A stretch of 64,000 bases of DNA from Escherichia coli (GTDB lineage Bacteria; Pseudomonadota; Gammaproteobacteria; Enterobacterales; Enterobacteriaceae), in NCBI RefSeq assembly GCF_050920415.1, contig NZ_CP169309.1; one strand, written 5' to 3'. The notes under the pieces were generated by a model, which saw nothing but the letters and a program-made list of their open reading frames with translations, made no database searches and was not told the origin of the DNA. How positions within the stretch are numbered: position 1 is the first letter of the stretch; every line of letters starts with the position of its first letter. Positions 1,757 through 35,786 of the stretch are shown one piece after another. The position numbers and the translations under genes were made by a program.

Positions 1757-2085
1757 CAGTTCACCACCTGTTCAAACTCTGCGCTGAACTCAACACGCAG
1801 CATACTGACCCGCGACGACCATTTTGCGCAGGTCACCTTTATCTGCCGCCACTCATAAGGCGGCGTCCACAGAAAGGATTTCCAGCCCCCGTGCTCTTCC
1901 AGAAACGACTCCAGTACCGTGGCCTCCTCACGGGGGACAGAAAGCGTCACGCTGTACGTTTTCAGGTTGGCATTCAGCCCGGCAGGCGCTCGCTGAGAAT
2001 AGCCATCACCAAAGCGCACCTTTCTTACAGAAGGGACCGAAGCCACATCCATACCGGGTTTCACTTTCCAGCGGAAGGTCTTCAT
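1756..2085 (-). CDS. M: minor tail protein M (lambda gpM-like)
   Basis: Track ORF 109 aa MKTFRWKVKPGMDVASVPSVRKVRFGDGYSQRAPAGL...; abuts L and H. Confidence 0.9.
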   Translation of the reverse strand: MKTFRWKVKPGMDVASVPSVRKVRFGDGYSQRAPAGLNANLKTYSVTLSVPREEATVLESFLEEHGGWKSFLWTPPYEWRQIKVTCAKWSSRVSMLRVEFSAEFEQVVN

Positions 2086-4643
2086 CGTCCACCTCCGGAG
2101 AACAGGCCACCATCACGCATCTGTGTCTGAATTTCATCACGGGCACCCTTGCGGGCCATGTCATACACCGCCTTCAGAGCAGCCGGACCTATCTGCCCGT
2201 TCGTGCCGTCGTTGTTAATCACCACATGGTTATTCTGCTCAAACGTCCCGGACGCCTGCGACCGGCTGTCTGCCATGCTGCCCGGTGTACCGACATAACC
2301 GCCGGTGGCATAGCCGCGCATCAGCCGGTAAAGATTCCCCACGCCAATCCGGCTGGTTGCCTCCTTCGTGAAGACAAACTCACCACGGTGAACAATCCCC
2401 GCTGGCTCATATTTGCCGCCGGTTCCCGTAAATCCTCCGGTTGCAAAATGGAATTTCGCCGCAGCGGCCTGAATGGCTGTACCGCCTGACGCGGATGCGC
2501 CGCCACCAACAGCCCCGCCAATGGCGCTGCCGATACTCCCGACAATCCCCACCATTGCCTGCTTAAGCAGAATTTCTGTCATCATGGACAGCACGGAACG
2601 GGTGAAGCTGCGCCAGTTCTGCTCACTGCCGGTCAGCATCGCTGCCATATTCTGTGCAATACCATCAAAGGTCTGCGTGGCTGCACTTTTTACCTGCGAC
2701 ATACTGTCCGTGGCGCTCTCTTCCCACTCACTCCAGCCGGACTTCAGGCCTGCCATCCAGCTCCCGCGAAGCTGGTCTTCAGCCGCCCAGGTCTTTTTCT
2801 GCTCTGACATGACGTTATTCAGCGCCAGCGGATTATCGCCATACTGTTCCTTCAGGCGCTGTTCCGTGGCTTCCCGTTCTGCCGGCCGGTCAGTCAGCCC
2901 CCGGCTTTTCGCATCAATGGCGGCCCGTTTTGCCCGTTGCTGCTGTGCGAATTTATCCGCCTGCTGCGCCAGCGCGTTCAGGCGCTCCTGATACGTAACC
3001 TTGTCGCCAAGTGCAGCCAGCTGGCGTTTGTACTCCAGCGTCTCATCTTTATGCGCCAGCAGGGATTTCTCCTGTGCGGACAGCTGGCGACGTTGTGCCG
3101 CCTCCTCCAGTACCGCGAACTGACTTTCTGCCTTCCACAAATCCCGGCGCTGCTGGCTGATTTTCTCATTTGCTCCGGCATGCTTCTCCAGCGTCCGGAG
3201 TTCTGCCTGAAGCGTCAGCAGGGCAGCATGAGCACTGTCTTCCTGACGATCGCCCGCAGACACCTTCACGCCGGACTGTTTCGGCTTTTTCAGCGTCGCT
3301 TCATAATCCTTTTTCGCCGCCGCCATCAGCGTGTTGTAATCCGCCTGCAGGATTTTCCCGTCTTTCAGTGCCTTGTTCAGTTCTTCCTGACGGGCGGTAT
3401 ATTTCTCCAGCGGCGTCTGCAGCCGTTCGTAAGCCTTCTGCGCCTCTTCGGTATATTTCAGCCGTGACGCTTCGGTATCGCTCTGCTGCTGCGCATTTTT
3501 GTCCTGTTGAGTCTGCTGCTCAGCCTTCTTTCGGGCGGCTTCAAGCGCAAGACGGGCCTTTTCACGATCATCCCAGTAACGCGCCCGCGCTTCATCGTTA
3601 ACAAAATAATCATCCTTGCGCAGATTCCAGATGTCGTCTGCTTTCTTAAACGCAGCCTCTGCCTTAATCAGCATCTCCTGCGCGGTATCAGGACGACCAA
3701 TATCCAGCACCGCATCCCACATGGATTTGAAGGCCCGCGCAGTCCTGTCTGCCCAGGTCTCCAGCGTGCCCATGTTCTCTTTCAGGCGGCGGGTCTGGTC
3801 ATCAAACCCTTTCGTTGCGGCCTCGTTCGCCGCCTGCAATGCCCCGGCTTCATCGCCGGAACGCTGCAACTGAGCAACATACGCAATCTGCTCCGCCGTC
3901 ACGTTATGGAACTGGCGTGCCATCGCCGTCAGCCCCGACGTCGGGTCTGTGGTCAGCTTCCCGAAGGCTTCAGCGACCTTGTCCACCTCCACGCCGGATG
4001 CAGAGGAGAAACGCGCCACACTCTGGCTGATGGACGCAATCTGAGCCTCACCGCTTACCCCCGCCTTAACCAGTGCGCTGAGTGACTCGCTGGTCTGGTT
4101 AAACGTCAGCCCTGCCGCCTGCCCGGCTCTGGACAGGACCAGCATGCGATCTGCCGTCAGACCCGACTGATTGCCGGAAAGGACCAGCGTTTTGTTGAAA
4201 TCGGACAGGGTTGAGTTGCCCTGATACCAGGCATACGCCAGCGCACCGGTCGCCACCGCCAGCGAGGTGGCCCCCACCATCGGCAGGGTGATCGCACCGG
4301 CAAGCCCCCTGAACATGGGGATCATCCCGCCGAAGGAGTCCTTCACCTGCCCCCCCTGTTGCAGCAGGATCAGCCACGGACTTTGCCCGCCTGCAAGCTG
4401 CGTGGCCACGTCGGTGAACTGTGCAGGCAGCATACGCATGGCGGCTTTATACTGCCCGACGGAAATCCCCGCTTTCTGTGCAGCCAGCGCCTGTCGGCTC
4501 AGCGACTGTTCAACGACTGCCGCTGTTTTTTTCGCATCACTTTCCGTACCGGAAAAATGACGCCTGACTCTGGCCATCTGCTCGTCAAATCTGGCCGCAT
4601 CCAGACTTAAATCAACGACCAGATCGCCTACCGGTTCAGCCAT
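2082..4643 (-). CDS. H: tail tape measure protein (lambda gpH-like)
   Basis: Track ORF 853 aa MAEPVGDLVVDLSLDAARFDEQMARVRRHFSG...; Ala/Gln-rich coiled-coil body with a Gly-rich C-terminal region. Confidence 0.95.
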   Translation of the reverse strand: MAEPVGDLVVDLSLDAARFDEQMARVRRHFSGTESDAKKTAAVVEQSLSRQALAAQKAGISVGQYKAAMRMLPAQFTDVATQLAGGQSPWLILLQQGGQVKDSFGGMIPMFRGLAGAITLPMVGATSLAVATGALAYAWYQGNSTLSDFNKTLVLSGNQSGLTADRMLVLSRAGQAAGLTFNQTSESLSALVKAGVSGEAQIASISQSVARFSSASGVEVDKVAEAFGKLTTDPTSGLTAMARQFHNVTAEQIAYVAQLQRSGDEAGALQAANEAATKGFDDQTRRLKENMGTLETWADRTARAFKSMWDAVLDIGRPDTAQEMLIKAEAAFKKADDIWNLRKDDYFVNDEARARYWDDREKARLALEAARKKAEQQTQQDKNAQQQSDTEASRLKYTEEAQKAYERLQTPLEKYTARQEELNKALKDGKILQADYNTLMAAAKKDYEATLKKPKQSGVKVSAGDRQEDSAHAALLTLQAELRTLEKHAGANEKISQQRRDLWKAESQFAVLEEAAQRRQLSAQEKSLLAHKDETLEYKRQLAALGDKVTYQERLNALAQQADKFAQQQRAKRAAIDAKSRGLTDRPAEREATEQRLKEQYGDNPLALNNVMSEQKKTWAAEDQLRGSWMAGLKSGWSEWEESATDSMSQVKSAATQTFDGIAQNMAAMLTGSEQNWRSFTRSVLSMMTEILLKQAMVGIVGSIGSAIGGAVGGGASASGGTAIQAAAAKFHFATGGFTGTGGKYEPAGIVHRGEFVFTKEATSRIGVGNLYRLMRGYATGGYVGTPGSMADSRSQASGTFEQNNHVVINNDGTNGQIGPAALKAVYDMARKGARDEIQTQMRDGGLFSGGGR

Positions 4644-4685
4644 ACCGGACTCCTCCTGCGATCCCTTCTGATACTGTCATCAGCA

Positions 4686-5069
4686 TTACGTCATCTCCGT
4701 CATGTCCGCCACATCCGGGGAAGCGGGGATAACTTCATTCCCGTCCGGGCCAAAGCGGACACCTCCGGCAAGCCCTGCCGCTTTCTGCATCAGCACATCA
4801 TCTTCAGGCTCTTCGTCAGCCTCGCGCCGGTTCAGCAGACTGAAATCCAGCGGATGCATATCCGGATCGCTGAAAAACAGGCTGAGCACGGTGTACGTCA
4901 GCCCGGAAAAGTGCATATCCAGCAGAACATCATGAAAATAATGGGTACTGTAAAAGCGGTGCCAGTCGGCATACTCCGTGGATGACATCCCGGCAAGCAT
5001 GGCACGCCAGTCAGGTCGCCCCATCTCACGCGCCAGTTTCAGGGCAAAACTCAGCTCACCGTCGAACAC
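4686..5069 (-). CDS. T: tail assembly chaperone T-frame segment (partner of G in the G-T fusion); C-terminally truncated relative to lambda T
   Basis: Track ORF 127 aa ...FDGELSFALKLAREMGRPDWRAMLAGMSSTEYADWHRFYSTHYFHDVLL...; ends ...DMTEMT* 43 nt upstream of the H start instead of overlapping it. Confidence 0.75.
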   Translation of the reverse strand: MFDGELSFALKLAREMGRPDWRAMLAGMSSTEYADWHRFYSTHYFHDVLLDMHFSGLTYTVLSLFFSDPDMHPLDFSLLNRREADEEPEDDVLMQKAAGLAGGVRFGPDGNEVIPASPDVADMTEMT

Positions 5070-5472
5070 TTTCCCGCAGAAACAGGCTCTGCGGGCCCGG
5101 CGTCCTCTGTCTGTTCAGGGCATTATTCACCACAAACTCATACATACCAGACAGCCGGTACACCACGTTTTCAGCATGAGAAATTGCCTCCGTGGGCCAG
5201 GTGGTAAGCACTTCCTGCTCAATCTGTTTAACGGCTTCATTCATGGACGGCAGCTTTGTCTTCTGCGGATGGTTATGCCACAGGGACATCGCCACCAGAA
5301 ACGCGCCGGTTCTGATGGCGTCTTCCACAGTAAACTTCCGGTTGCTGTCTGACTCCGCCTGTTCTGCCTGCCGTTTCATCAGGGCGAGATGCTCAATGCG
5401 CTGCAGGGCTGACAGTTCAGAAAGCGTGACGGTCACACCGTTATGTTCAAATGATTCGGTTTTCAGGAACAT
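5056..5472 (-). CDS. G: tail assembly chaperone G (lambda gpG-like) with frame-changed C-terminus
   Basis: Track ORF 138 aa MFLKTESFEHNGVTVTLSELSALQRIEHLALMKRQAEQ... ending ...VVNNALNRQRTPGPQSLFLRESVRR; slippery heptamer GGGAAAG at 5069-5075 (minus strand). Confidence 0.8.
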   Translation of the reverse strand: MFLKTESFEHNGVTVTLSELSALQRIEHLALMKRQAEQAESDSNRKFTVEDAIRTGAFLVAMSLWHNHPQKTKLPSMNEAVKQIEQEVLTTWPTEAISHAENVVYRLSGMYEFVVNNALNRQRTPGPQSLFLRESVRR

Positions 5473-5487
5473 CGCTGACTCTCCGGA

Positions 5488-6227
5488 TTAACTGTCGGTG
5501 ACAGTGATTTCTGCAACCGCAGCAAGTTCACCATTACCGGATAAAACCGGAATGTTGACCTTACCTGCAGCAACGCCTTTCACGGTGATGGTCATACCAC
5601 TGACCGACACGGTGGCTTTTGTTTTATCCGCTGACACCGCACGGAAGCTCTTGTCAGTTGCGCCCTCCGGCTGGAATGCCACGGTCAGCGTGGTGCTCTG
5701 CCCTTTCACCACCGAGGAGCTGGCAGGCGTCACGGTCATACCGGTTGCCGCTGTTACCGTGCTGCGATTTCTGCCATTGACGGACGGCCCACATTGGTGA
5801 CCTTCACCGTACGGGTGATCACTTCCTTCGCCGTCACCGCCTTACCGATACTGCTGACCCAGCCACGGAACACATCGACCGTGCCGTTCGGGAAGCGGAT
5901 TTTATAGGCACGGGTATCACCTTCATTAAACCACGCCAGCAGCGCCTGCTGCCCCTGCTCTCCGGGCATCCACGCCAGCGTGAAGCTGGTATCTCCGGCG
6001 GATTTCTGCCCCTGCCCGGTCGCGGTCCAGTCCGCATCTTCATCATCGAGATAACTGTCGTCATAGGACTCAGCGGTCAGTTCGCCGGGCGTCAGGTCTT
6101 TAACTTTAGCCAGACGCGACCAGTCAACGTCTGAAAGCGGGTTCGCATAAGGGTCGCCGCTCCCGTTATAAACCCACAGGGTGGTCCCGGCACCTTTCAC
6201 CGGTATTGCTGGATTTGGTACAGGCAT
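5488..6227 (-). pseudogene. V: major tail tube protein V (lambda gpV-like) split by a single-base frameshift into a tube-domain ORF (5754-6227) and an Ig-like C-terminal domain ORF (5488-5739)
   Basis: ORF 5754-6257 contains [20 protein letters not shown]...[11 protein letters not shown]; ORF 5488-5739 ([26 protein letters not shown]...ITVTDS) is in a different frame; the two are contiguous in lambda V. Confidence 0.75.
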
Positions 6228-6234
6228 ATCGTCC

Positions 6235-6630
6235 TCACATTTCATAGGTAATGACATAAGTCAGATCGGCAGAACTCCACAGGCCCGCATCATCGTCGCG
6301 CCGGTAGTCATAGCCACTGGCCACCATACTGGTGATCAAATCTGACAGTGCCGGGATATCGCTCATCACCGGATAAATCCGGGACTCCATCCACGCATCC
6401 AGCTCTGAATCCGGCACCTGAGCAGGCAGGAAAACTTCGATATGCAGTTCCGCCTGCCAGGTATCGCTGTCCAGCTCTTCGCCCGTGTATTCAGCGCCGG
6501 TGAGATAAACGGCAACTGCCGGAAAATCCGCCTCATCAAAAACAGCGGGGCGACCATCAAAAAACGTCGCCCCGGTGTCATGCTTCTCCAGTGCATCCAG
6601 TACGGCTGCACGGAGTTCAGTATGTTTCAT
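6235..6630 (-). CDS. U: tail terminator protein U (lambda gpU-like)
   Basis: Track ORF 131 aa [31 protein letters not shown]... Confidence 0.9.
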
Positions 6631-7216: not shown

Positions 7217-7570
7217 TCAGCGGCGACGGTTAACGGCAGGCGGTACGCCCCGCCCAAGCCAGAGATGACAGCTTCCGCCATCATCCGGCGAAATCCGGTC
7301 TATCCAGAAGTTTTCCTCACCGATGGTCAGCGTGTCGCCGCGCCGCAGCTGCCGCACATCATCAGTCCGGACAAACATGGACGGGCTGGAGCCTTCAACG
7401 CGCACGCCCGGTCCGGCATAGCTGATATTTTCAGGGTCATCAAAAACACCACGTATCACAGCACCGGACTGCTCACCGGATGTCATGGTGGCTGACGTTC
7501 CCATGTACCCGCGTATCGTTTCATCGGCGCGGGCAATGGCAGCATCGAACAGGTTATCGAAATCAGCCAC
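7217..7570 (-). CDS. FII: head-tail connector protein FII (lambda gpFII-like)
   Basis: Track ORF 117 aa MADFDNLFDAAIARADETIRGYMGTSATMTSGEQSG... Confidence 0.9.
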   Translation of the reverse strand: MADFDNLFDAAIARADETIRGYMGTSATMTSGEQSGAVIRGVFDDPENISYAGPGVRVEGSSPSMFVRTDDVRQLRRGDTLTIGEENFWIDRISPDDGGSCHLWLGRGVPPAVNRRR

Positions 7571-7581
7571 AGCGCCTCCCG

Positions 7582-7977
7582 TTATTGCATTCTGGCCAGG
7601 CCGCGCTCTGTCATTTCGGCTGCCACACCGGCAGAGACACGGAACGCCGTTCCCGGCAGCACAAATGCCACAGGTTCATCCCGCGTGGCGTGAAGTGCAT
7701 CAGTATGCAGCGTCACCAGTGCCACAACCGTGACCAGATCAGCCGTATCAGTCACGGTATCCGGCTGCGCTGATACCACCTCATTTTCATGTCCGGTCAG
7801 CGCATTTTCCGGGCTGACAGATGTGTCCTGACCGGCAGCGTCATCCGTGTCATCAAGCTCCTCTTCCAGCTCTGCCACACGGAGCGCCAGTTCTTCTTTC
7901 GTCCCCGTCAGGCTGACATCACGGTTCAGTTGTTCACCCAGCGAGCGGAGACGGGCAATCAGTTCATCTTTCGTCAT
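7582..7977 (-). CDS. FI: DNA packaging protein FI (lambda gpFI-like)
   Basis: Track ORF 7582-8016; start chosen at internal Met (MTKDELIARLRSLGEQLNRDVSLTG...), giving 131 aa. Confidence 0.85.
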   Translation of the reverse strand: MTKDELIARLRSLGEQLNRDVSLTGTKEELALRVAELEEELDDTDDAAGQDTSVSPENALTGHENEVVSAQPDTVTDTADLVTVVALVTLHTDALHATRDEPVAFVLPGTAFRVSAGVAAEMTERGLARMQ

Positions 7978-8018
7978 GGACTCCTCCACAGAGAGAAAAT
8001 GGCCCCGAAGGGCCATGA

Positions 8019-9044
8019 TTACGCCAGTTGTACGGACACGAACTCATCAGGGTCAGCCAGCAGCATCAGCGGTGCTGACTGAATCATGGTGAACTCACGC
8101 GCCGGATCGCCGGTGGTCACCCAGTTTTTCGGGTAACGGGCAGAGGCGTTAATGCCTTCGCGCTGTGCGTCCGCATCCTGAATGCAGCCATAGGTGCGCA
8201 GACCGCGTGCCTGAGTGTTACCCAGCACCATCGTGTTGTCCGGCAGGAAGTTCTTTTTGACGCCGTTTTCCACGTACTGTCCGGAATACACGACGATGGC
8301 CACATCGCCATACATCCCCTTATAGGACACCGCTTTGCCCAGGTCTTTCACCGCTGTCTCCAGCTCGGAATTAGAGCCACGACGGGTATCCAGCTTCTCC
8401 CTGACGGCTTTGAAGGAACGGAACAGCGCCCAGCCTTTCGGATCGAACACGATGATATTCACCACACCGCTGGCGTTCAGCGCGTAGGCTTCGATATCGT
8501 CGGTCGGGTCATACGTGGACTTGTCACGCTTGCTCCACTCCGTGCCGCCGGACTGCGTGATGTTATTCTCCTCACTGCGGCCCATATCCACCTCAACCGG
8601 ATCGAAGGCTTCACCGGTCATGGTGTATTTGCCCTTAAGCACGGCAGAAACTGCCTGCATCTCTTCGACCTGAGCAATGGCCAGCTCTTCGTCACGCATG
8701 TTCTGCATGATGATGCGACGGCGGCGGTAAGCCGGGTCCGCCAGATTCTGCGGATCTTCATCCGGCAGGCGACGCAGGGTCATCTGCGGATTCACTTCAT
8801 GCTTCGGCTTGACATATCCCGGCGTAAATTCAGAGGTGGAGCCGCCACGGGAACGGATAACCTCACCGGAAACAATCGGCGAAACGTACAGCGCCATGTT
8901 TACCAGTCCCGGAATTTGTGAGAGATAGACTTTCTCCGTGGTGAAGGGATAGCTCTCACGGAAAAAGAGACGCAGAAACAGCGGATCAAACTTAAATTTC
9001 TGCTCATTTGCCGCCAGCAGTTGGGCGGTTGTGTACATCGACAT
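8019..9044 (-). CDS. E: major capsid protein E (lambda gpE-like)
   Basis: Track ORF 341 aa MSMYTTAQLLAANEQKFKFDPLFLRLFFRESYPF... Confidence 0.95.
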   Translation of the reverse strand: MSMYTTAQLLAANEQKFKFDPLFLRLFFRESYPFTTEKVYLSQIPGLVNMALYVSPIVSGEVIRSRGGSTSEFTPGYVKPKHEVNPQMTLRRLPDEDPQNLADPAYRRRRIIMQNMRDEELAIAQVEEMQAVSAVLKGKYTMTGEAFDPVEVDMGRSEENNITQSGGTEWSKRDKSTYDPTDDIEAYALNASGVVNIIVFDPKGWALFRSFKAVREKLDTRRGSNSELETAVKDLGKAVSYKGMYGDVAIVVYSGQYVENGVKKNFLPDNTMVLGNTQARGLRTYGCIQDADAQREGINASARYPKNWVTTGDPAREFTMIQSAPLMLLADPDEFVSVQLA

Positions 9045-9100
9045 AAAAAAATCCCGTAAAAAAAAGCCGCACAGGCGGCCTTTAGTGATGAAGGGTAAAG

Positions 9101-9433
9101 TTAAACGATGCTGATTGCCGTTCCGGCAAACGCGGTCCGTTTTTTCGTCTCGTCGCTGGCAGCCTCCGGCCAGAGCACATCCTCATAACGGAACGTGCCG
9201 GACTTGTAGAACGTCAGCGTGGTGCTGGTCTGGTCAGCAGCAACCGCAAGAATGCCAACGGCAGCACCGTCGGTGGTGCCATCCCACGCAACCAGCTTAC
9301 GGCTGGAGGTGTCCAGCATCAGCGGGGTCATTGCAGGCGCTTTCGCACTCAATCCGCCGGGCGCGGTTGCGGTATGAGCCGGGTCACTGTTGCCCAGCGG
9401 CTGGTAATGGGTAAAGGTTTCTTTGCTCGTCAT
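9101..9433 (-). CDS. D: head decoration protein D (lambda gpD-like)
   Basis: Track ORF 9101-9439; start at second Met gives 110 aa [27 protein letters not shown]... Confidence 0.9.
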
Positions 9434-9442
9434 AAACATCCC

Positions 9443-10742
9443 TTACACTGGTGTGTTCAGCAAATCGTTAACGGCATCAGATGCCGGGTTACCTGCAGCC
9501 AGCGGTGCCGGTGCCCCCTGCATCAGACGATCCAGCGCAGTGTCACTGCGCGCCTGTGCACTCTGTGGTGCTGCGGCCAGAATGCGGCGGGCCGTTTCCA
9601 CGGTCATACCGGGGGTTTCTGCCAGCACGCGTGCCTGTTCTTCGCGTCCGTGAGCCTCCTCACAGTTGAGGATCCCCATAATGCGACTGTTTTCTGCCGC
9701 AACCGCTGCGGTGATCTGCGCGTTCACGTCCGGCTGCGCCGCGCTGGCGTTTTCGCCCTCCGTCGCTGGCACCACGTCAGTAACGTCAGCCTGCGAAGCA
9801 GTGGCTGAAACAGTTGTTGATTGAGTCTCTTTGGTCATTCGCCCTCCTGAGAGACGGGATTTACGTGCATCCAGTGCATCACGCATGACGGTGATCGCAT
9901 CGGTGCTGTTAACAAGTTCATCAGCCAGTCCGGCATCAATGGCCTCCTGACCGCTGTACACTGCAGCCTCGGTATCCAGCACAGCCTGCACGGACAGGCC
10001 GGTATATGCCGACACCTTCTGCGCAAACATCTGGCGGGTTGCGTCCATCCGGGACTGCAGTGTCTCCCGGACGTCATCCGGAAGATGGCTGTAGGGGTTG
10101 CCATCCACCTTATGGCTGCCGCTGTAAATCAGCGTGATTTCCACACCCTGTTTCTCCAGCGCAGCACCGTAATTACTGTGAGCCATCATGACGCCGATGG
10201 AGCCTGTCCGGGCGGTCTGCGTGACCAGACGCCGGGAGGCGGCACTGGCAAGCAGCTGACCTGCACTGCAGTTCATGTCGTTGGCCAGCGCCCATACCGG
10301 TTTTATGTCACGCACACGGGCGATGATGTCAGCGCAGTCAAATGCCCCCGCCACCATCCCGCCGGGCGTGTCCATATCGAGCAGAATGCCGTCCACCATC
10401 GGATCGCTGGCAGCCTGTTGCAGACGGGCGATAATGCCGTTGTAACCGGTCATCCCCGAATACGGCTGCAGCGCCCGCGTCCGGCTGACCAGCGTGCCGG
10501 AAACCGGCAGCACGGCGATGCCGTTCATGACCTGATAACTGCGGGCCTGTCGTGGTCCGTCATCATCACCGGATAACGCCAGCGTCGCGGGTGTCTCCGG
10601 GGCAGTCAGGCTGTCACCGGACACCGCATCTGTCAGGCGGCTGATCCCAAGCTGGCCTGCAAGCGCACAAAAGAAAACCCGCGCATAGGCGGGTTCAAGC
10701 ATCAGCGGCTCATTAAAGGCCATACTGGCAATATGCGGGAGA

Positions 10743-10762
<20 letters not shown>
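9443..10762 (-). CDS. C: head maturation protease/scaffold C (lambda gpC-like; Nu3 scaffold expected nested in-frame in its 3' part)
   Basis: Track ORF 9443-10897; product from the in-frame GTG at ~10760-10762 is 439 aa (VTAELRNLPHIASMAFNEPLMLEPAYARVFF...), overlapping the portal gene end as in lambda. Confidence 0.85.
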
Positions 10763-14443
<3,681 letters not shown>

Positions 14444-14469
<26 letters not shown>

Positions 14470-14989
14470 TCAGCAACCCCGGTATCAGTTCATCCAGCGC
14501 GGCTGCTTTGTTCATGGCTTTGATGATATCCCGTTTCAGGAAATCAACATGTCGGTTTTCCAGTTCCGGAAAACGCCGCTGCACCGACAGGGGGATCCCG
14601 TCGAGAATACTGGCAATTTCACCTGCGATCCGCGACAGCACGAAAGTACAGAATGCGGTTTCCACCACTTCAGCGGAGTCTCTGGCATTTTTCAGCTCCT
14701 GTGCGTCGGCCTGCGCACGCGTAAGTCGATGGCGTTCGTACTCAATAGTCCCTGGCTGGAGATCTGTCTCGCTGGCCTGCCGCAGTTCTTCAACTTCCCG
14801 GCGCAGCTTTTCGTTCTCAATTTCAGCATCCCTTTCGGCATACCATTTTATGACGGCGGCAGAATCATAAAGCACCTCATTACCCTTGCCACCGCCTCGC
14901 AGAACGGGCATTCCCTGCTCCTGCCAGTTCTGAATGGTACGGATACTCGCACCGAAAATATCAGCCAGCTGCTTTTTGTTGACTTCCAT
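14444..14989 (-). CDS. nu1: terminase small subunit Nu1 (lambda gpNu1-like)
   Basis: Track ORF 181 aa MEVNKKQLADIFGASIRTIQNWQEQGMPVLRGGGKGNE... (winged-HTH N-terminus). Confidence 0.95.
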
Positions 14990-14999
14990 TGTTCATTCC

Positions 15000-15200
15000 A
15001 CGGACAAAAACAGAGAAAGGAAACGACAGAGGCCAAAAAGCTCGCTTTCAGCACCTGTCGTTTCCTTTCTTTTCAGAGGGTATTTTAAATAAAAACATTA
15101 AGTTATGACGAAGAAGAACGGAAACGCCTTAAACCGGAAAATTTTCATAAATAGCGAAACCCCGCGAGGTCGCCGCCCCGTAACCTGTCGGATCGCCGGA
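15000..15200 (-). other. cos: cos site (cosB-cosN-cosQ); 12-nt cohesive-end sequence GGGCGGCGACCT present as reverse complement at ~15167-15178
   Basis: Reverse complement of 15001-15200 matches the lambda cos region as I recall it (GGGCGGCGACCTCGCGGG...TTTATGAAAATTTTCCGGTTTAAGGCGTTTCC...; other side ...CGGGTCCTTTCCGGCGATCCGACAGGTTACG); sits immediately upstream of Nu1. Confidence 0.8.
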
Positions 15201-15377
15201 AAGGACCCGCAAAATGATAATAATTATCATCTACATGTCACAACGTGCATCTACGCCATCAAACCACGTCAAATAATCAATTATGACGCAGGTATCGTAT
15301 TAATTGATCCGCATCAACTTAACGTAAAAACAACTTCAGACAATACAAATCAGCGACACTGAATACGGGGCAACCTC

Positions 15378-15572
15378 ATGTCAACGAAGAACAGAACCCG
15401 CAGAACAACAACCCGCAACATCCGCTTTCCTAACCAAATGATTGAACAAATTAACATCGCTCTTGATCAAAAAGGGTCCGGGAATTTCTCAGCCTGGGTC
15501 ATTGAAGCCTGCCGTCGGAGGCTAACGTCAGAAAAGAGAGCATATACATCAATTAAAAGTGATGAAGAATGA
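15378..15572 (+). CDS. ylcI: DUF3950-family small protein (DLP12 YlcI-like)
   Basis: Track ORF 64 aa MSTKNRTRRTTTRNIRFPNQMIEQINIALDQKGSGNFSAWVIEACRRRL...; recalled as YlcI-like, ribbon-helix-helix-like. Confidence 0.6.
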   Translation: MSTKNRTRRTTTRNIRFPNQMIEQINIALDQKGSGNFSAWVIEACRRRLTSEKRAYTSIKSDEE

Positions 15573-15736
15573 ACATCCCGCGTTCTTCCCTCCGAACAGG
15601 ACGATATTGTAAATTCACTTAATTACGAGGGCATTGCAGTAATTGAGTTGCAGTTTTACCACTTTCCTGACAGTGACAGACTGCGTGTTGGCTCTGTCAC
15701 AGGTTAAGTAGTTTGAATGATTAGCAGTTATGGTGA

Positions 15737-15943
15737 TCAGTCAACCACCAGGGAATAATCCTTCATATTATTATCGTGCTTCACCAACGCTGCCTCAATT
15801 GCCCTGAATGCTTCCAGAGACACCTTATGTTCTATACATGCAATTACAACATCAGGGTAACTCATAGAAATGGTGCTATTAAGCATATTTTTTACACGAA
15901 TCAGATCCACGGAGGGATCATCAGCAGATTGTTCTTTATTCAT
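15737..15943 (-). CDS. ybcW: hypothetical protein (DLP12 YbcW-like)
   Basis: Track ORF 68 aa [40 protein letters not shown]... Confidence 0.6.
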
Positions 15944-16186
15944 TTTGTCGCTCCATGCGCTTGCTCTTCATCTAGCGGTTAAAATATTACTTCAAATCTT
16001 TCTGTATGAAGATTTGAGCACGTTGGCCTTACATACATCTGTCGGTTGTATTTCCCTCCAGAATGCCAGCAGGACCGCACTTTGTTACACAACCAATACT
16101 ATTAATTGAAAACATTCCTAATATTTGACATAAATCATCAACAAAACACAAAGAGGTCAGACCAGATTGAAACGATAAAAACGATA

Positions 16187-16639
16187 ATGCAAACTACGCG
16201 CCCTCGTATCACATGGAAGGTTTTACCAATGGCTCAGGTTGCCATTTTTAAAGAAATATTCGATCAAGTGCGAAAAGATTTAAACTGTGAATTGTTTTAT
16301 TCTGAACTAAAACGTCACAATGTCTCACATTATATTTACTATCTAGCCACAGATAATATTCACATTGTGTTAGAAAACGATAACACTGTGTTAATAAAAG
16401 GACTTAAAAAGGTTGTAAATGTTAAATTCTCAAGAAATACGCATCTTATAGAAACGTCCTTTGATAGGTTGAAATCAAGAGAAATCACATTTCAGCAATA
16501 CAGGGAAAATCTTGCTAAAGCAGGAGTTTTCCGATGGGTTACAAATATCCACGAACATAAAAGATATTACTATACCTTTGATAATTCATTACTATTTACT
16601 GAGAGCATTCAGAACACTACACAAATCTTTCCACGCTAA
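16187..16639 (+). CDS. ybcV: DUF1398-family protein (DLP12 YbcV-like)
   Basis: Track ORF 16106-16639; start chosen at internal Met [32 protein letters not shown]... Confidence 0.6.
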
Positions 16640-16929
16640 ATCATAACGTCCGGTTTCTTCCGTGTCAGCACCGGGGCGTTGGCATAATGCAATACGTGTA
16701 CGCGCTAAACCCTGTGTGCATCGTTTTTAATTATTCCCGGACACTCCCGCAGAGAAGTTCCCCGTCAGGGCTGTGGACATAGTTAATCCGGGAATACAAT
16801 GACGATTCATCGCACCTGACATACATTAATAAATATTAACAATATGAAATTTCAACTCATTGTTTAGGGTTTGTTTAATTTTCTACACATACGATTCTGC
16901 GAACTTCAAAAAGCATCGGGAATAACACC

Positions 16930-17223
16930 ATGAAAAAAATGCTACTCGCTACTGCGCTGGCCCTGCTTATTACAGGATGTGCTCAACAGACGTTTACTGT
17001 TCAAAACAAACAGACAGCAGTAGCACCAAAGGAAACCATCACCCATCATTTCTTCGTTTCTGGAATTGGGCAGAAGAAAACTGTCGATGCAGCCAAAATT
17101 TGTGGCGGCGCAGAAAATGTTGTTAAAACAGAAACCCAGCAAACATTCGTAAATGGATTGCTCGGTTTTATTACTTTAGGCATTTATACTCCGCTGGAAG
17201 CGCGTGTGTATTGCTCAAAATAA
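16930..17223 (+). CDS. bor: Bor lipoprotein (serum-resistance lysogenic conversion protein)
   Basis: Track ORF 97 aa MKKMLLATALALLITGCAQQTFTVQNKQTAVAPKET...; lipobox LITGC; opposite strand to late genes as in lambda. Confidence 0.85.
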   Translation: MKKMLLATALALLITGCAQQTFTVQNKQTAVAPKETITHHFFVSGIGQKKTVDAAKICGGAENVVKTETQQTFVNGLLGFITLGIYTPLEARVYCSK

Positions 17224-17254
17224 TTGCATGAGTTGCCCATCGATATGGTCAGCT

Positions 17255-17716
17255 CTATCTGCACTGCTCATTAATATACTTCTGGGTTCCTTCCAGTTGT
17301 TTTTGCATAGTGATCAGCCTCTCTCTGAGGGTGAAATAATCCCGTTCAGCGGTGTCTGCCAGTCGGGGGGAGGCTGCATTATCCACGCCGGAGGCGGTGG
17401 TGGCTTCACGCACTGACTGACAGACTGCTTTGATGTGCAACCGACGACGACCAGCGGCAACATCATCACGCAGAGCATCATTTTCAGCTTTCGCATCAGC
17501 TAACTCCTTCGTGTATTTTGCATCGAGCGCAGCAACATCACGCTGACGCATCTGCATGTCAGTAATTGCCGCGTTCGCCAGCTTCAGTTCTCTGGCATTT
17601 TTGTCGCGCTGGGCTTTGTAGGTAATGGCGTTATCACGGTAATGATTAACAGCCCATGACAGGCAGACGATGATGCAGATAACCAGAGCGGAGATAATCG
17701 CGGTTACTCTGTTCAT
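17255..17716 (-). CDS. Rz: spanin inner-membrane subunit Rz (i-spanin)
   Basis: Track ORF 17255-17728; contains [39 protein letters not shown]...; lambda Rz-like. Confidence 0.9.
17314..17496 (-). CDS. Rz1: spanin outer-membrane lipoprotein subunit Rz1 (o-spanin), embedded in Rz in the +1 frame
   Basis: Track ORF 60 aa [46 protein letters not shown]...; lipobox VVGC and Pro-rich segment. Confidence 0.85.
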
Positions 17717-18210
17717 TGCTGACCCCACAAACAGATTTCACGCTCAATCTCACGACGAGTCATGAGACCTTTCCATTGCTTACCGCCAGCATATGTCCAG
17801 CGACGTAGCTGATCACATGCGCCTTTGATATCGCCCTGGTTTATTTTGCGAAGAAGCGTCGATGTTCTGAAATTGCCAGCACCCACGTTGTAAACGAATG
17901 AGTAAAGAGCGCCGCGCATTGTTTCCGGTATATCGACTTTGATGTACGGGTTAATTTGTCTGGCGACCGTGGCAAGGTCTTTATTCAGGAGGGCTTTGCA
18001 TTCTGCTTTGGTATACGTTTTACCGAGCATGATGTCTTTTCCTGTATGCCCGTGACATACAGTCCATACACCAACAATATCTTTGTATGGTATGTAGCTG
18101 ACACCTTCCAGACCATCGTTACCACTTGGGCCAGTGATTAACACTGATGCTATAGCAATTGCTCCGCCACCAATAGCAGCAGCAACGGCTTTTCGTAATG
18201 ATGGAGGCAT
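17713..18210 (-). CDS. R: SAR endolysin (phage-21 R / DLP12 RrrD-type lysozyme)
   Basis: Track ORF 165 aa [44 protein letters not shown]...; N-terminal Gly/Ala-rich signal-arrest-release helix followed by a T4-lysozyme-like catalytic region. Confidence 0.85.
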
Positions 18211-18425
18211 TATTCACCTCTCGCAGCCTTGCGCTTATCTTCTTTAATCTTGAAATAAAGGTTTGTCAGGTACGTCAGCAGGCCAAATACCAGGCTACCC
18301 AGCACACCTATTGCTGCCCACTGTGAGGGCGTGACTTTATCGAGCAGCTGTAAAAACCAGTAACCGGCACTACCTGCTGAGGTGCCATAGGCGACACCCG
18401 TTGTTAACTTATCCATGGATTTCAT
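18210..18425 (-). CDS. S: pinholin (phage-21 S21 / DLP12 EssD-type holin)
   Basis: Track ORF 71 aa [71 protein letters not shown]; two TM segments and a charged C-terminus. Confidence 0.8.
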
Positions 18426-18532
18426 AACCCCACCTCGCAGACAAAGCGGGTGTAAATTGAGGGAATACTACGAAACGTAACAGACTCGGAGTCAGTGAAT
18501 AACTCAGGTATTGGGTTATCAGCTAATATCGA

Positions 18533-18570
18533 GACTCAAAAAATGGAAAAACCCGCTCGACGGCGGGTTT
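18533..18570 (-). terminator. putative rho-independent terminator on the late-gene strand, upstream of S
   Basis: Minus strand reads AAACCCGCCGTCGAGCGGGTTT followed by TTCCATTTTTTGAG (GC-rich stem plus T-run). Confidence 0.45.
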
Positions 18571-18998
18571 AAGCTGTGTGACGAAGTAACCACTCTTAAC
18601 AGCATAACCAATTTTTTACGTACGTAAACCACTAAATGATATTTGCGAGAATGCTACCGAGTATTGAAAACACCACTACAAATACATAAGCAAATCTCAA
18701 CAAATAACCAACAAATAATTTCCAGTGTTATTTTTAGCCGATTTAAATTGAACCTTCAAATTATAGAGCACTTATAAATAACAGCCGTTAATATAAATTG
18801 GCTAATAGATTTATTTTTATTCAGCCAAGAGCTATAAATAGGATTCGATAGAAAAAAGTTCAGATAAAAATAGAGATCTACTTCACAAATCAAACGAGAA
18901 ACCAAAACTTACATCTTGAAATAATCACATTGATTAGATGAATATTTATCGCGCAGTGACATCATTTTTTAATAATAGTTCAAAAAAAAGGGCTCACG

Positions 18999-20096
18999 AT
19001 GAAAAAATTAACAGTGGCAATTTCTGCTGTAGCTGCATCAGTACTGATGGCGATGTCTGCTCAGGCAGCTGAAATTTATAATAAAGACAGTAACAAGCTG
19101 GATCTGTACGGGAAAGTTAATGCTAAGCACTACTTCTCCTCTAATGATGCAGATGATGGTGATACTACTTATGCCCGTCTTGGCTTCAAAGGTGAAACCC
19201 AAATCAACGATCAGCTGACTGGTTTCGGTCAGTGGGAATATGAATTCAAAGGCAACCGCGCTGAATCTCAAGGTTCCTCCAAAGACAAAACCCGTCTTGC
19301 ATTTGCAGGCCTGAAATTCGGTGACTACGGCTCAATCGATTACGGCCGTAACTACGGTGTAGCATACGACATCGGTGCGTGGACTGACGTTCTGCCAGAA
19401 TTCGGTGGCGATACCTGGACCCAAACAGATGTGTTCATGACTGGTCGTACCACTGGTGTTGCAACCTATCGTAACAACGACTTCTTTGGTCTGGTTGATG
19501 GTCTGAACTTTGCTGCTCAGTACCAAGGCAAAAACGATCGTAGCGATTTCGATAACTACACTGAAGGTAACGGTGATGGCTTCGGTTTCTCTGCTACCTA
19601 TGAATACGAAGGATTCGGTATCGGTGCAACTTATGCGAAATCTGATCGTACCGACACTCAAGTTAATGCAGGGAAAGTTCTTCCTGAAGTATTTGCTTCC
19701 GGTAAAAATGCAGAAGTTTGGGCCGCAGGTCTGAAATATGACGCTAACAACATTTACCTGGCCACTACCTATTCTGAAACCCAGAATATGACTGTATTTG
19801 CTGATCACTTCGTTGCTAATAAAGCTCAAAACTTCGAAGCTGTTGCACAATATCAGTTCGATTTCGGTCTGCGTCCGTCCGTTGCTTACCTGCAATCTAA
19901 AGGTAAGGATCTTGGAGTATGGGGCGATCAGGACTTAGTCAAATATGTTGATGTAGGTGCAACCTATTACTTCAACAAAAATATGTCTACTTTCGTTGAT
20001 TACAAAATCAACCTGCTTGACAAAAATGACTTCACTAAAGCACTCGGTGTAAGCACTGATGACATCGTTGCTGTAGGTCTGGTTTACCAGTTCTAA
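18999..20096 (+). CDS. nmpC: outer membrane porin (NmpC/Lc-type general porin), apparently intact
   Basis: Track ORF 365 aa [46 protein letters not shown]...VGLVYQF; signal peptide and C-terminal aromatic residue typical of OmpC-family porins; lies between Q and S on the opposite strand as in DLP12/PA-2. Confidence 0.9.
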
Positions 20097-20104
20097 TCTG
20101 ATTA

Positions 20105-20146
20105 CGAAAAAGATATGTTGCGGGAGGCTTTGCCTCCCCAACATAT
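20105..20146 (-). terminator. putative late terminator tR' (minus strand), also usable as convergent terminator for nmpC
   Basis: Palindrome ATATGTTGGGGAGGC-AAAG-CCTCCCGCAACATAT followed on the minus strand by CTTTTTCG; ~100 nt downstream of a promoter-like sequence after Q. Confidence 0.45.
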
Positions 20147-20233
20147 AAGTGGCTCCCTCAAGCCACTTCCTTTAGGAGCACAACCTTGCTTCTAACTATA
20201 TAAACCTTCTGTTATATATTACCCTTTATTTTT

Positions 20234-20259
20234 GGGGGCGTTGCAACGCCCCATTTTTA
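20234..20259 (+). terminator. putative rho-independent terminator on the plus strand downstream of nmpC
   Basis: GGGGCGTTGCAACGCCCC followed by ATTTTTAA. Confidence 0.5.
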
Positions 20260-20285
20260 ATAACTTTTAGTAAACAACTGGCATA

Positions 20286-20669
20286 TTAATTAGAGTTATT
20301 AACAACGATATCCATCTCTAACCGGATATCTAATGCCATTAACATCCCTTCAATTATACCCTCAGCCTTCTGTAACCTTTTCCCGATATAACCATCAGAG
20401 CAGCAATGCTTACCTGCCAGTGACATGAATGTCATACCGACTACATAATAATCTACTAATAAATCGTGCAAATCGCTGTTGTTCTTTTTCAGACGGGCCA
20501 TGCACCCGCAAATGATCATCGCGTCATCGTCACAACATTGCGGGCGAGATTTTACTTTTGAAGTAATTAATCCCTTAAAACCGGCGGCAATGGACGACCA
20601 GGTCACATCTTCATGATTATTAGCCGCCCACGCTCCCCAACGCTCAAGAACCATCTGAATATCACGCAT
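20286..20669 (-). CDS. Q: late-gene antiterminator Q (phage-82 / DLP12 QuuD type)
   Basis: Track ORF 20286-20684; contains [34 protein letters not shown]...[18 protein letters not shown]... (127 aa from this Met); Cys cluster consistent with a zinc-binding Q. Confidence 0.8.
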
Positions 20670-24519: not shown

Positions 24520-26022
24520 ATGACTCAAACTCCTCTATTACTTGCAATCATATTTTTATTGGTTGTTCTTGTTCTTTATATAGCTGCAATCAAACGCATC
24601 AAAAAAATACAATTAGAATTAAGTGATAGCAATCAAAAAAATGAAGAATACAAATCTCGCTTTGCAGATTATTTTAATGTAGAAGAAGAATGTAAGAAGC
24701 TTATTGAGAAAACAGAGCAAGAATGCTCCATAATAAAAGAAGAATCCCTAAAAGTAAAAGAAAATGCCAATAATGAACTAACAAACACCATTGAAAAAAT
24801 GGATGGTATCAATAAACAAATCCAAGAGCTAAGAAGAACTTATAAAGAGAAGAAAGAAATATATGATAAACTAGTAAGGCAAATTTCTATTTATTCAGAA
24901 GATGTTGAGCTAGCCGAACTAGGATTTTACGAACCTCATTTTAATTTTGAAGATTCAGAGCAATTTAAAAACAAAATAAAATCCATCAGGGATGAACAGA
25001 AATTAATGCTGCGGGATAAAACCCACTCTGGCGCAGTATATTGTACAACCCAATGGACTGTTGAAGGCTCTCGAGCAGAGGGTAAAAAAATGACAGACAG
25101 AAATATCAGGCTAACTACTAGAGCATTTAATAATGAATGTGATGCTGCAATTAGCAATTGCACGTGGAAAAACATCACTAAAATGGAAGAACGCATCACA
25201 AAGGCATTTGAGGCCATAAATAAACTAAACGAGCAAAATCACATATATATAAACACTAAATACCTCAATAAAAAACTTGAGGAATTGTGGCTTACCCATG
25301 AATATCGTGAGCAAAAACAGAAAGAAAAAGAAGAACAGGCAGAAATAAGGGCACAAATGAGAGAGGAGGAGCGTGCACAACGAGAAATAGAAAAGGCCAT
25401 GCAAGACGCAGAGGCAGAAGAGCGCCGTTATAAAAAAGCAATTGAAGCTGCAAGAAAGGAAATGGAAAAAGTTACTGGTGACATGAAGCAGCGCCTCGAA
25501 AATCGCATTGCCGAACTAGAACAGAGTTTGTCGCAGGCTGAATCAAAGCATCAAAGAGCATTATCCATGGCACAACAAACCAAACAAGGTCATGTTTATA
25601 TTATTTCGAACATAGGTTCTTTTGGGGAGAATGTTTATAAAATAGGCATGACACGACGTCTTGATCCGCAAGACCGTGTAAATGAGCTCGGTGATGCATC
25701 TGTTCCTTTTATTTTTGATGTACATGCCATGATTTATTCGGAGGACGCTCCATCATTAGAAAAAAAACTACATGATGTCTTCGATAAAAAGAGAGTCAAT
25801 CTTGTAAATCGTAGAAAAGAGTTTTTCTATGTTACTCTGGATGAGATCAAAGAAGCTGTTAAAAAACACTCTGATTCAGAAATTGAATTTATTGAGACAG
25901 CAGTCGCAAAAGACTTTAATGAGTCATTGGCTATTCGTAATCATGAAAATAAAAAAAGTGACAACAGCAACTCATCAATTATACCTGAGCGAAAAACCCC
26001 AGAGTTTGCAGATGCAATTTAA
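24520..26022 (+). CDS. membrane-anchored coiled-coil protein with C-terminal GIY-YIG/T5orf172-like domain (DUF4041-like architecture); candidate defence moron
   Basis: Track ORF 500 aa: N-terminal TM helix (LLLAIIFLLVVLVLYIAAI), ~300 residues Lys/Glu-rich coiled coil, then GHVYIISNIGSFGENVYKIGMTRRLDPQDRVNELG...EKKLHDVF...RKEFFYV; RBS AAGGAA; strongly AT-rich; opposite strand to flanking phage genes. Confidence 0.8.
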   Translation: MTQTPLLLAIIFLLVVLVLYIAAIKRIKKIQLELSDSNQKNEEYKSRFADYFNVEEECKKLIEKTEQECSIIKEESLKVKENANNELTNTIEKMDGINKQIQELRRTYKEKKEIYDKLVRQISIYSEDVELAELGFYEPHFNFEDSEQFKNKIKSIRDEQKLMLRDKTHSGAVYCTTQWTVEGSRAEGKKMTDRNIRLTTRAFNNECDAAISNCTWKNITKMEERITKAFEAINKLNEQNHIYINTKYLNKKLEELWLTHEYREQKQKEKEEQAEIRAQMREEERAQREIEKAMQDAEAEERRYKKAIEAARKEMEKVTGDMKQRLENRIAELEQSLSQAESKHQRALSMAQQTKQGHVYIISNIGSFGENVYKIGMTRRLDPQDRVNELGDASVPFIFDVHAMIYSEDAPSLEKKLHDVFDKKRVNLVNRRKEFFYVTLDEIKEAVKKHSDSEIEFIETAVAKDFNESLAIRNHENKKSDNSNSSIIPERKTPEFADAI

Positions 26023-34332: not shown

Positions 34333-34675
34333 GGCCTGTCAGTTTCTTAAGATATCCAGACCAACCGCCACCAACTGGATACGAACAGGCCGCCTACAGG
34401 CAACACGTAAAGATCCAACCAAGCCAAAATCTCCTTACCTCACAACACGGCAAGCCTGCATTGCGGCGCTTCAGTCTCCGCTGCATACTGTCCAGGTGAG
34501 CGCGGGTGATGGCATAACAGAGGAAAGAAAATGTCACTCTTCCGCAGAAATGAAATATGGTATGCCTCGTATTCGCTCCCGGGCGGGAAACGAATTAAGG
34601 AATCTCTTGGCACAAAGGACAAGCGGCAAGCTCAGGAGTTGCACGACAAGCGAAAAGCAGAACTCTGGCGAGTAG
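34304..34675 (+). CDS. xis: excisionase-like protein (AlpA/Xis-type HTH), overlapping int start
   Basis: Track ORF 34274-34675; [37 protein letters not shown]... has the HTH pattern of AlpA/Xis-family excisionases; the open frame runs ~145 nt into int. Confidence 0.5.
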
Positions 34676-35694
34676 AAAAGCTAGGGGATTTACCTGATGT
34701 CACTTTTGAAGAGGCCTGCCTAAGATGGCTTGAGGAAAAAGCTGATAAAAAATCTCTCGATTCAGATAAAAGCCGGATTGAGTTCTGGCTTGAACATTTT
34801 GAGGGTATAAGGCTTAAAGATATCTCGGAGGCAAAGATTTACTCTGCTGTAAGCAGAATGCATAACAGAAAGACGAAAGAAATATGGAAACAGAAAGTTC
34901 AGGCCGCCATCAGGAAAGGTAAAGAACTGCCTGTTTATGAACCAAAGCCAGTATCAACTCAGACAAAGGCAAAGCATCTTGCCATGATAAAGGCCATTCT
35001 CCGTGCTGCAGAACGCGACTGGAAGTGGCTGGAAAAAGCGCCTGTCATCAAGATACCAGCGGTCAGAAACAAGCGAGTCAGATGGCTGGAAAAGGAGGAA
35101 GCAAAACGCCTTATTGATGAGTGCCCCGAACCACTGAAATCTGTCGTCAAGTTTGCGCTGGCAACTGGTCTGAGAAAGTCGAACATCATAAATCTGGAAT
35201 GGCAACAAATCGACATGCAGCGACGAGTTGCCTGGGTGAATCCAGAAGAGAGCAAATCAAACCGCGCCATTGGTGTGGCGCTAAACGATACCGCCTGTAA
35301 AGTGTTGCGTGATCAAATAGGCAAGCATCACAAATGGGTGTTTGTACATACCAAGGCGGCTAAGCGAGCAGATGGAACATCAACGCCTGCGGTCAGGAAG
35401 ATGCGCATCGACAGCAAGACATCATGGCTATCAGCTTGTCGTCGTGCAGGAATTGAAGATTTCCGTTTCCATGACCTCAGACACACCTGGGCAAGCTGGC
35501 TGATTCAGTCAGGCGTCCCATTATCAGTGCTTCAGGAAATGGGCGGATGGGAGTCCATAGAAATGGTTCGTAGGTATGCTCACCTTGCGCCTAATCATTT
35601 GACAGAGCATGCGAGGAAAATAGACGACATTTTTGGTGATAATGTCCCAAATATGTCCCACTCTGGAATTATGGAGGATATAAAGAAGGCGTAA
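34531..35694 (+). CDS. int: tyrosine site-specific integrase
   Basis: Track ORF 387 aa [47 protein letters not shown]...[39 protein letters not shown]; catalytic R..HxxR..Y signature; ends 15 nt from the tRNA 3' end. Confidence 0.95.
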
Positions 35695-35730
35695 CTGATT
35701 GAATTGTAATGGCGCGCCCTGCAGGATTCG
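35695..35730. other. prophage-host junction (att site overlapping the 3' end of argU); exact core not determinable without the distal copy
   Basis: int stop at 35694 and tRNA 3' end (CCA) at 35710; the second att copy is off-window. Confidence 0.5.
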
Positions 35731-35786
35731 AACCTGCGGCCCACGACTTAGAAGGTCGTTGCTCTATCCAACTGAGCTAAGGGCGC
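35710..35786 (-). tRNA. argU: tRNA-Arg (anticodon UCU)
   Basis: Reverse complement reads GCGCCCTTAGCTCAGTTGGATAGAGCAACGACCTTCTAAGTCGTGGGCCGCAGGTTCGAATCCTGCAGGGCGCGCCA; D- and T-arm consensus, anticodon loop CUUCUAA, 3' CCA. Confidence 0.9.

Follow-up and report, generated by a model that had tools for sequence, protein, structure and literature searches.

Register of the G-T slip site

The locus examined here raises the question of whether a lambdoid prophage of Escherichia coli has lost the programmed -1 frameshift that joins tail genes G and T, or whether it only appears to have done so in the assembled sequence. The window, by which we mean the whole 64,000-nucleotide stretch that was analyzed, is lambdoid prophage from position 1 to approximately 35,700 and E. 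coli chromosome for the remainder (fimZ/sfm, folD, cysS, purEK and the all genes), with an intD-type integrase (34531-35694) that adjoins tRNA-Arg(tct) (35710-35786), i.e., the argU site. The late operon lies on the minus strand and comprises E, FI, FII, Z, U, V, G, T, H, M, L and K. Between V (5488-6227) and H on this strand are two overlapping open reading frames, of which the upstream one is homologous to gpG and the downstream one to gpT, as judged from NCBIfam matches and from 98.5% nucleotide identity to lambda (J02459) across G-T. For the upstream frame, the match to TIGR01674 (phage_lambda_G) scored 192.7 bits against a cut-off of 74.45 and covered residues 1-121 of 138, that is, up to the frame change, while the downstream frame matched TIGR01715 (phage_lam_T) with 170.3 bits against a cut-off of 77.35. 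The features of this part of the operon are as follows.

5056 to 5472, minus strand: gene G (tail assembly chaperone), 138 aa as written, with the last 19 residues out of frame from a 1-nt deletion
5069 to 5075, minus strand: slippery heptamer GGGAAAG, intact, read (C)GG GAA AG and not G GGA AAG
5118 to 5120, minus strand: first deletion site, coding-strand CCC versus CCCC in lambda, 2H10, HN68, JCKP02 and MFDS1022581
4686 to 5075, minus strand: T reading frame, +1 to G as written, with an early end (...DVADMTEMT and stop) 42 nt before the start of H
2082 to 4643, minus strand: H (tape measure), 853 aa, intact

The reference system for such a locus is the lambda G-T frameshift, which is said to have been the subject of Levin et al. 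in 1993. It is a programmed -1 ribosomal frameshift with the slip site G GGA AAG (PMC3296357, PMC5009743), the identity of GGGAAAG as the lambda G/GT heptamer being given in Table 1 of PMC3296357, and it has gpG and gpGT at a ratio of about 30:1, with G binding the tape measure and T recruiting V (PMC5009743, PMC3296357). Our locus is like lambda in its V-G-T-H gene order, its identical heptamer, the open T frame downstream and its equivalog matches to both TIGR01674 and TIGR01715, but as written it departs from lambda on three counts, namely a heptamer shifted by one base from its proper register, a T frame at +1 to G, and a shortened T.

Inspection of the sequence and its frames confirmed that the initial annotation had correctly described the G frame and the heptamer register. 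Gene G as written ends ...NNALNRQRTPGPQSLFLRESVRR and stop (given as VVNNALNRQRTPGPQSLFLRESVRR and stop in the open reading frame list), and the first G of the heptamer falls at codon position 2 of this frame (CTG CGG GAA AGT GTT CGA CGG TGA), whereas in lambda it falls at codon position 3 (GCG GGA AAG). As a result, G as written does not hold G GGA AAG in its zero frame shortly before its stop, nor does T lie in the -1 frame relative to G, since the T frame (GGG AAA GTG TTC GAC GGT GAG CTG...) is +1 to it. A -1 slip from the written frame would instead enter GCG GGA AAG TGT TCG ACG GTG AGC TGA, which is the lambda G frame, and then stop. The canonical -1 G-T fusion is thus absent from the sequence as written, just as had been claimed.

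Alignment to lambda J02459 and phage 2H10 traced the frame change in G to a single base, with GCCCCTG having become GCCCTG, and the run that is left (plus-strand GGG at 5118-5120) lies 43 nt upstream of the heptamer. The suspicion that one C had been lost from a CCCC run upstream of the slip site was therefore well founded. When one C was put back in silico, G became 140 aa long with the lambda C-terminus (...NNAPEQTEDAGPAEPVSAGKCSTVS and stop), the heptamer returned to register and a -1 slip then entered T, so that the lambda C-terminus and register given in the annotation also proved accurate.

Two further single-base deletions in T and V

Aligning the locus to lambda and related prophages, a check that the initial annotation had proposed, showed that the relatives examined all possess CCCC at the first site and additionally brought out two deletions that the annotation had missed, one in T and one in V, such that three adjacent tail genes (V, G and T) are each short by one base.

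4695, minus strand: second deletion site, in T, plus-strand single C versus CC in relatives, coding strand GGAGGATG to GGAGATG
5754 to 6227, minus strand: V, N-terminal tube-domain fragment, approximately 152 native residues and then IAAR and stop (...PSMAEIAAR and stop)
5488 to 5768, minus strand: V, C-terminal Ig-like (Big_2) part in another frame, with frame 2 reading to ...TVTDS and stop
5768 to 5769, minus strand: third deletion site, in V, plus-strand GCGAT-TTC versus GCGATCTTC in relatives, outside a homopolymer, removing the C of a GATC (Dam) site

The deletion in T is seen in the 1-kb alignment with lambda and 2H10 as GACGGAGGATG to GACGGAGATG at plus-strand 4695, and in longer context as GACGGAGGATGAC to GACGGAGATGAC. 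Its effect is that the last 17 residues of T (DDVMLMTVSEGIAGGVRYG) are replaced by MT and a stop, the native end being ...DVADMTEDDVMLMTVSEGIAGGVRYG and stop, which leaves T 17 residues short of a full-length gene of 144 codons (lambda numbering) ending at the start of H. The T stop and the H start of lambda overlap, but here 42 nt separate the T stop from the H ATG at 4643 and uncouple the two. Judging from the alignment, the native end of T is still present in the adjacent frame, and one base (G at 4695) restores the gene. In V, the change on the minus strand is CAGAAGATCGC to CAGAAATCGC, at about plus-strand 5768, and splits the gene between its tube and Ig-like domains, the latter recorded as Pfam Big_2 on the intact homologues; again, one base at 5768 is enough to restore a V open reading frame of 246 codons.

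Absence of the deletion alleles from related sequences

To place these three deletions among related sequences, 5,426 complete E. coli genomes were searched, and in 3,686 of these a site covers 80% or more of the query. The best 40 of these 3,686 all span 1,704 nt where the window has 1,701, with an identity of 99.8% for the best matches, a shortfall that the three gaps would by themselves roughly account for (3/1,704 = 0.18%). Among phage records, the best 40 listed of the 50,697 searched all span 1,003 nt compared with 1,001 in the window. A scan of three public collections, of viral, metagenome and species-representative genomes, gave no exact match to a 30-mer carrying the G deletion, but 10 viral contigs possess the wild-type 31-mer of this site; this exact pattern scan covered the G deletion only, and the V and T deletions were judged by span differences and by open reading frame lengths in related contigs. 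Approximately 24 such contigs, identified by a Z, portal or FII protein identical to that of the window and extending as far as V-G-T, possess a V of 246 aa, a G of 140 aa and a T of 144 aa with the canonical overlap. The Z protein of the window is too common to discriminate lineages, and the contigs reached through its portal and FII variants do not exceed 98-99.8% identity, the best of them being the draft assembly L021 described below. Overall, none of the three deletions occurred in the E. coli matches listed, the aligned phage records or the roughly 24 contigs reaching V-G-T, i.e., in any of the independent sequences compared for this element, and an exact-protein look-up for the frame-changed G and for H of the window matched no record.

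These comparisons bear on the idea that an alternative recoding event, either a +1 or -2 ribosomal shift near C GGG AAA GU or a compensating shift at CCC, still yields a G-T fusion here. It could draw on an intact heptamer, on a T frame that is open from the heptamer onward, and on the prospect that, were both tRNAs to shift by +1 (CGG to GGG, GAA to AAA), each would presumably keep two of its three pairs. Against it, no relative examined has such a register, every related locus that reaches G-T possessing the canonical -1 register, and the heptamer codons of the written frame, CGG and GAA, cannot re-pair at -1. By inspection there is also neither a stimulatory +1 context nor a shifty stop (CGG UGA cannot re-pair at GGU), and because T is truncated and V broken, a rescued fusion would still be abnormal. 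A known parallel is 'corrective' frameshifting or slippage (Citrobacter rodentium tssM, PMC4256274; a category in PMC5009743), which resembles the present case in that an indel precedes a C-terminal extension that is required; but those corrective cases use long homopolymeric runs conserved within a lineage, while the run in the window is CCC, too short for the transcriptional slippage described in PMC4256274, and its allele was found nowhere else searched. Given this private allele together with a truncated T and a broken V, the G lesion is not an isolated, conserved design. On codon inspection, we rejected recoding by -1, +1, -2 or transcriptional slippage, as no re-pairing, stimulatory context or conservation was found, and we hold it to be the least probable of all readings considered here, with next to no weight.

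Clustering of the deletions in an otherwise clean window

The closest full-length prophage is that of E. coli HN68, also at argU, to which window positions 1-36998 aligned at 99.09% identity with 332 mismatches and only 6 gap columns. Three of these columns are the deletions (at 4694/5, 5117-20 and 5768) and the other three are intergenic, one in an A-tract (9058-9065) and two forming a compensating pair right of the tRNA, such that the only frame-breaking indels across 37 kb relative to HN68 are the three deletions. From about 9100 to 36400 there is no gap at all relative to HN68, the three deletions lying further left. An independent draft assembly, L021 (GCA_035787075.1, JALKTG010000007.1), matched window positions 7476-20344 at 99.78% identity with zero gaps over 12.9 kb. 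The A-tract upstream of E has 8 A both here and in L021, compared with 7 A in HN68, JCKP02 and MFDS1022581; we considered it as a fourth private indel and rejected it, and the 8-A tract is probably genuine because the independent draft has the same length.

The chromosomal part of the window is equally clean. Positions 39001-64000 are 100.0% identical to the chromosome of E. coli MFDS1022581 with zero gaps, and none of the 24 genes there (0/24) is frameshifted. Across the regions compared with MFDS1022581, L021 and HN68, unique sequence in the window is without a private frame-breaking indel.

Two minor observations were made along these alignments. The allD gene (ureidoglycolate dehydrogenase; 54196-55245, plus strand) has an in-frame stop at codon 57 (54364-54366), which is common to MFDS1022581, where PGAP labels it 'internal stop', while allD is intact in strain 2013C-4282. 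In FI, there is an in-frame 3-nt length difference relative to ydfJ-type prophages at 7749-7751, and no such gap relative to HN68.

The main alternative to an artifact is that all three deletions are real, and that three independent -1 mutations have put the tail module of an otherwise complete argU lambdoid prophage out of action. Such a prophage would have a scrambled G C-terminus and no gpGT, a T minus its last 17 residues and a V minus its Ig-like domain. After induction, host lysis and head packaging would go ahead, but functional tails would not be made. In favor of this reading, the written sequence specifies just such a tail defect, E. coli annotations often contain frameshifted prophage genes, and gpG and gpGT are both needed for tail assembly in a ratio that matters (PMC3296357, PMC5009743). 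The distribution of the lesions, however, argues against this reading, as the three events span 1,075 bp, with otherwise no frame-breaking indel in the 37-kb prophage, and the probability of a span of 1,075 bp or less is 0.0025 for three events placed uniformly in 37 kb. None of the three is shared with any other sequence searched. Furthermore, because one lesion already abolishes tails, there would be no selection for two more nearby. We therefore regard three real mutations as unlikely, though well within what a prophage of this kind might present.

A tail module shared with a prophage of a sister strain

The three deletions also share their surroundings, as they all fall in a block that recurs, save for the missing bases, in a lambdoid prophage of another strain.

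3172 to 6335, no strand assigned: identity block, 3,164 bp long and without a mismatch when set against the prophage at ydfJ in E. coli MFDS1022581, covering the 3' part of H, T, G, V and the 5' part of U

Within this block the sole differences from the ydfJ-site prophage of MFDS1022581 are the three deletions, while the flanks diverge by 1-3%, and the probability that three random events would all fall inside it is approximately 6e-4. The block looks, from the sequences compared, like a recent exchange or a module shared between lambdoid prophages. The spectrum of changes is three deletions and zero substitutions in the block, two of the three being in short C/G runs and one in a GATC Dam site; as the block was delimited by its lack of mismatches, the 'no substitutions' part of this argument is partly built into its definition. 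Outside the block, counts of private substitutions versus private indels over the late operon are not informative because the head region is mosaic, with a best match of 99.2% and 53 positions that differ from all three comparators. That the lesions are all deletions, with no substitution alongside, and all sit in a block identical to another prophage further weakens the case for three real mutations.

A variant of the real-mutation reading would have the three deletions arise at once, the block being a gene-conversion tract from a co-resident prophage that was copied by error-prone, Pol IV/DinB-type -1 repair synthesis in a 'mutation shower'. The three -1 losses, each of a G:C pair, would be its footprint, and V, G-T and T would have been lost in a single step. 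This would explain both the clustering and the deletion-only spectrum without any sequencing error. It would need approximately one error per kb, far above any measured rate for such synthesis that we know of, and we consider it very improbable, a small part of the already low weight given to real deletions as a whole.

The sister strain provides the context for the block. In MFDS1022581 (NZ_CP169399.1, 3596000-3637000) the argU site is empty (envY, tRNA-Arg, fimZ), with no prophage there, and since this is so despite a chromosome that is 100.0% identical over 25 kb, the argU prophage is, on these alignments, a recent gain or loss within the lineage. The same strain, with its identical 25-kb chromosomal stretch, has the copy of the block at ydfJ, and it is therefore the sister strain that carries the repeat partner. 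All three deletions are confined to sequence matching a second prophage of the sister strain, and it is from this strain that we infer a partner in the source genome itself. If the source genome also has a ydfJ-site prophage, the block is an exact 3.2-kb repeat within it.

The MFDS1022581 assembly has its own lesions in repeated elements. PGAP flags as frameshifted the portal gene and the istA and istB genes of ISEc62 (NZ_CP169399.1, prophage-region coordinates 7465-9429 and 13956-15556). The portal gene has a 1-nt deletion that is not common to the next-best matches listed and lies in a region found at 4 sites of that genome, and the ISEc62 copy, an element that likewise has 4 places there, is 2 nt shorter than its closest copy. 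By these comparisons the multi-copy elements of the MFDS1022581 assembly are flawed in the manner seen in the window.

Separately, the L021 contig, whose head module is 99.8% identical, ends at window position 7476, inside FII and before the tail genes. Such a break would fit a tail module that is present in several copies in strains of this type.

A consensus error as the preferred explanation

Real mutations in E. coli are predominantly substitutions, whereas the errors of a long-read consensus are for the most part deletions and often fall in homopolymers, and systematic nanopore errors are known to arise at Dam sites. Set against this background, a pattern of deletions only, confined to a repeat while the rest of the window is clean, is what one would expect of long-read errors that survive polishing. 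We accordingly think it probable that the G frame change belongs to a set of three single-base deletion errors left uncorrected in the consensus of the assembly, and is likely not a biological change.

The proposed course of events would start from a source genome that carries a second copy of the block and was assembled from long reads, both of which we infer. The 3172-6335 tail module would probably be present identically in a second lambdoid prophage of this genome; long reads would place such a repeat correctly, while short reads could not be mapped uniquely inside it. As short-read mapping would not be unique in the repeat, consensus indels from the long reads would survive short-read polishing there and be removed everywhere else. 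That short-read alignment is unreliable in repeats, and that errors there often remain after polishing, is documented in the Polypolish paper (PMC8812927 / bioRxiv 10.1101/2021.10.14.464465). The true sequence would then be canonical throughout, with a V of 246 aa, a G of 140 aa holding G GGA AAG in its zero frame, and a 144-aa T read in the -1 frame, and with it a normal programmed -1 G-T frameshift.

Compared with residual long-read errors in repeats as a known phenomenon, the window is alike in having single-base deletions, mostly in short homopolymers, within a multi-kb exact repeat and next to clean unique sequence. It differs in that one of the three deletions is at a GATC site and in that the repeat partner comes from the sister strain. 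These two differences are also what speaks against a consensus error, as the third deletion is outside a homopolymer and the second prophage has been demonstrated only in a strain with an identical 25-kb chromosomal stretch. It is likewise the case that prophage genes do accumulate frameshifts, so that a genuine cluster of pseudogenes keeps some probability.

Weighing these points, a consensus error in an inter-prophage repeat is the most likely cause and an ordinary tail-defective prophage the next most likely. The initial annotation had left it open whether the prophage is tail-defective, relies on another recoding event or has been misassembled, and of these three readings it is the assembly error that gained the best support, while a tail defect keeps the lesser probability given above and recoding found no support.

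Implications for the prophage and for genome annotation

If the deletions are errors, then 'complete' genomes can carry false pseudogenes exactly in those prophage modules that are common to co-resident phages. The G-T frameshift site would in that case serve as a sensitive detector, because a single missing base is enough to make an essential recoding signal look broken. If they are instead real, the strain possesses an otherwise intact argU prophage that is probably able to excise, replicate and lyse and that makes no tails, which would be an ordinary defective prophage of local interest only. Either outcome leaves the knowledge of programmed frameshifting unchanged.

The window prophage can also be set beside DLP12, a defective lambdoid prophage of E. 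coli K-12, which occupies the same argU integration site and whose type of gene names (nohD, essD, rrrD, rzpD, quuD, rusA, ybcN/O) appears in the HN68 annotation of the equivalent prophage. Unlike DLP12, which we take to be a deletion remnant without head and tail modules, the window prophage has every gene from integrase through K at its HN68-annotated length, the distal tail genes being off the window, and what separates it from intact relatives are three single bases, its frame-breaking indels.

Two cargo genes were noted in this prophage as annotated in HN68. One encodes a 365-aa porin (18999-20096, plus strand) between Q and the lysis genes, and the other a 500-aa DUF4041 protein (24520-26022, plus strand) between a P22AR-like gene and ren.
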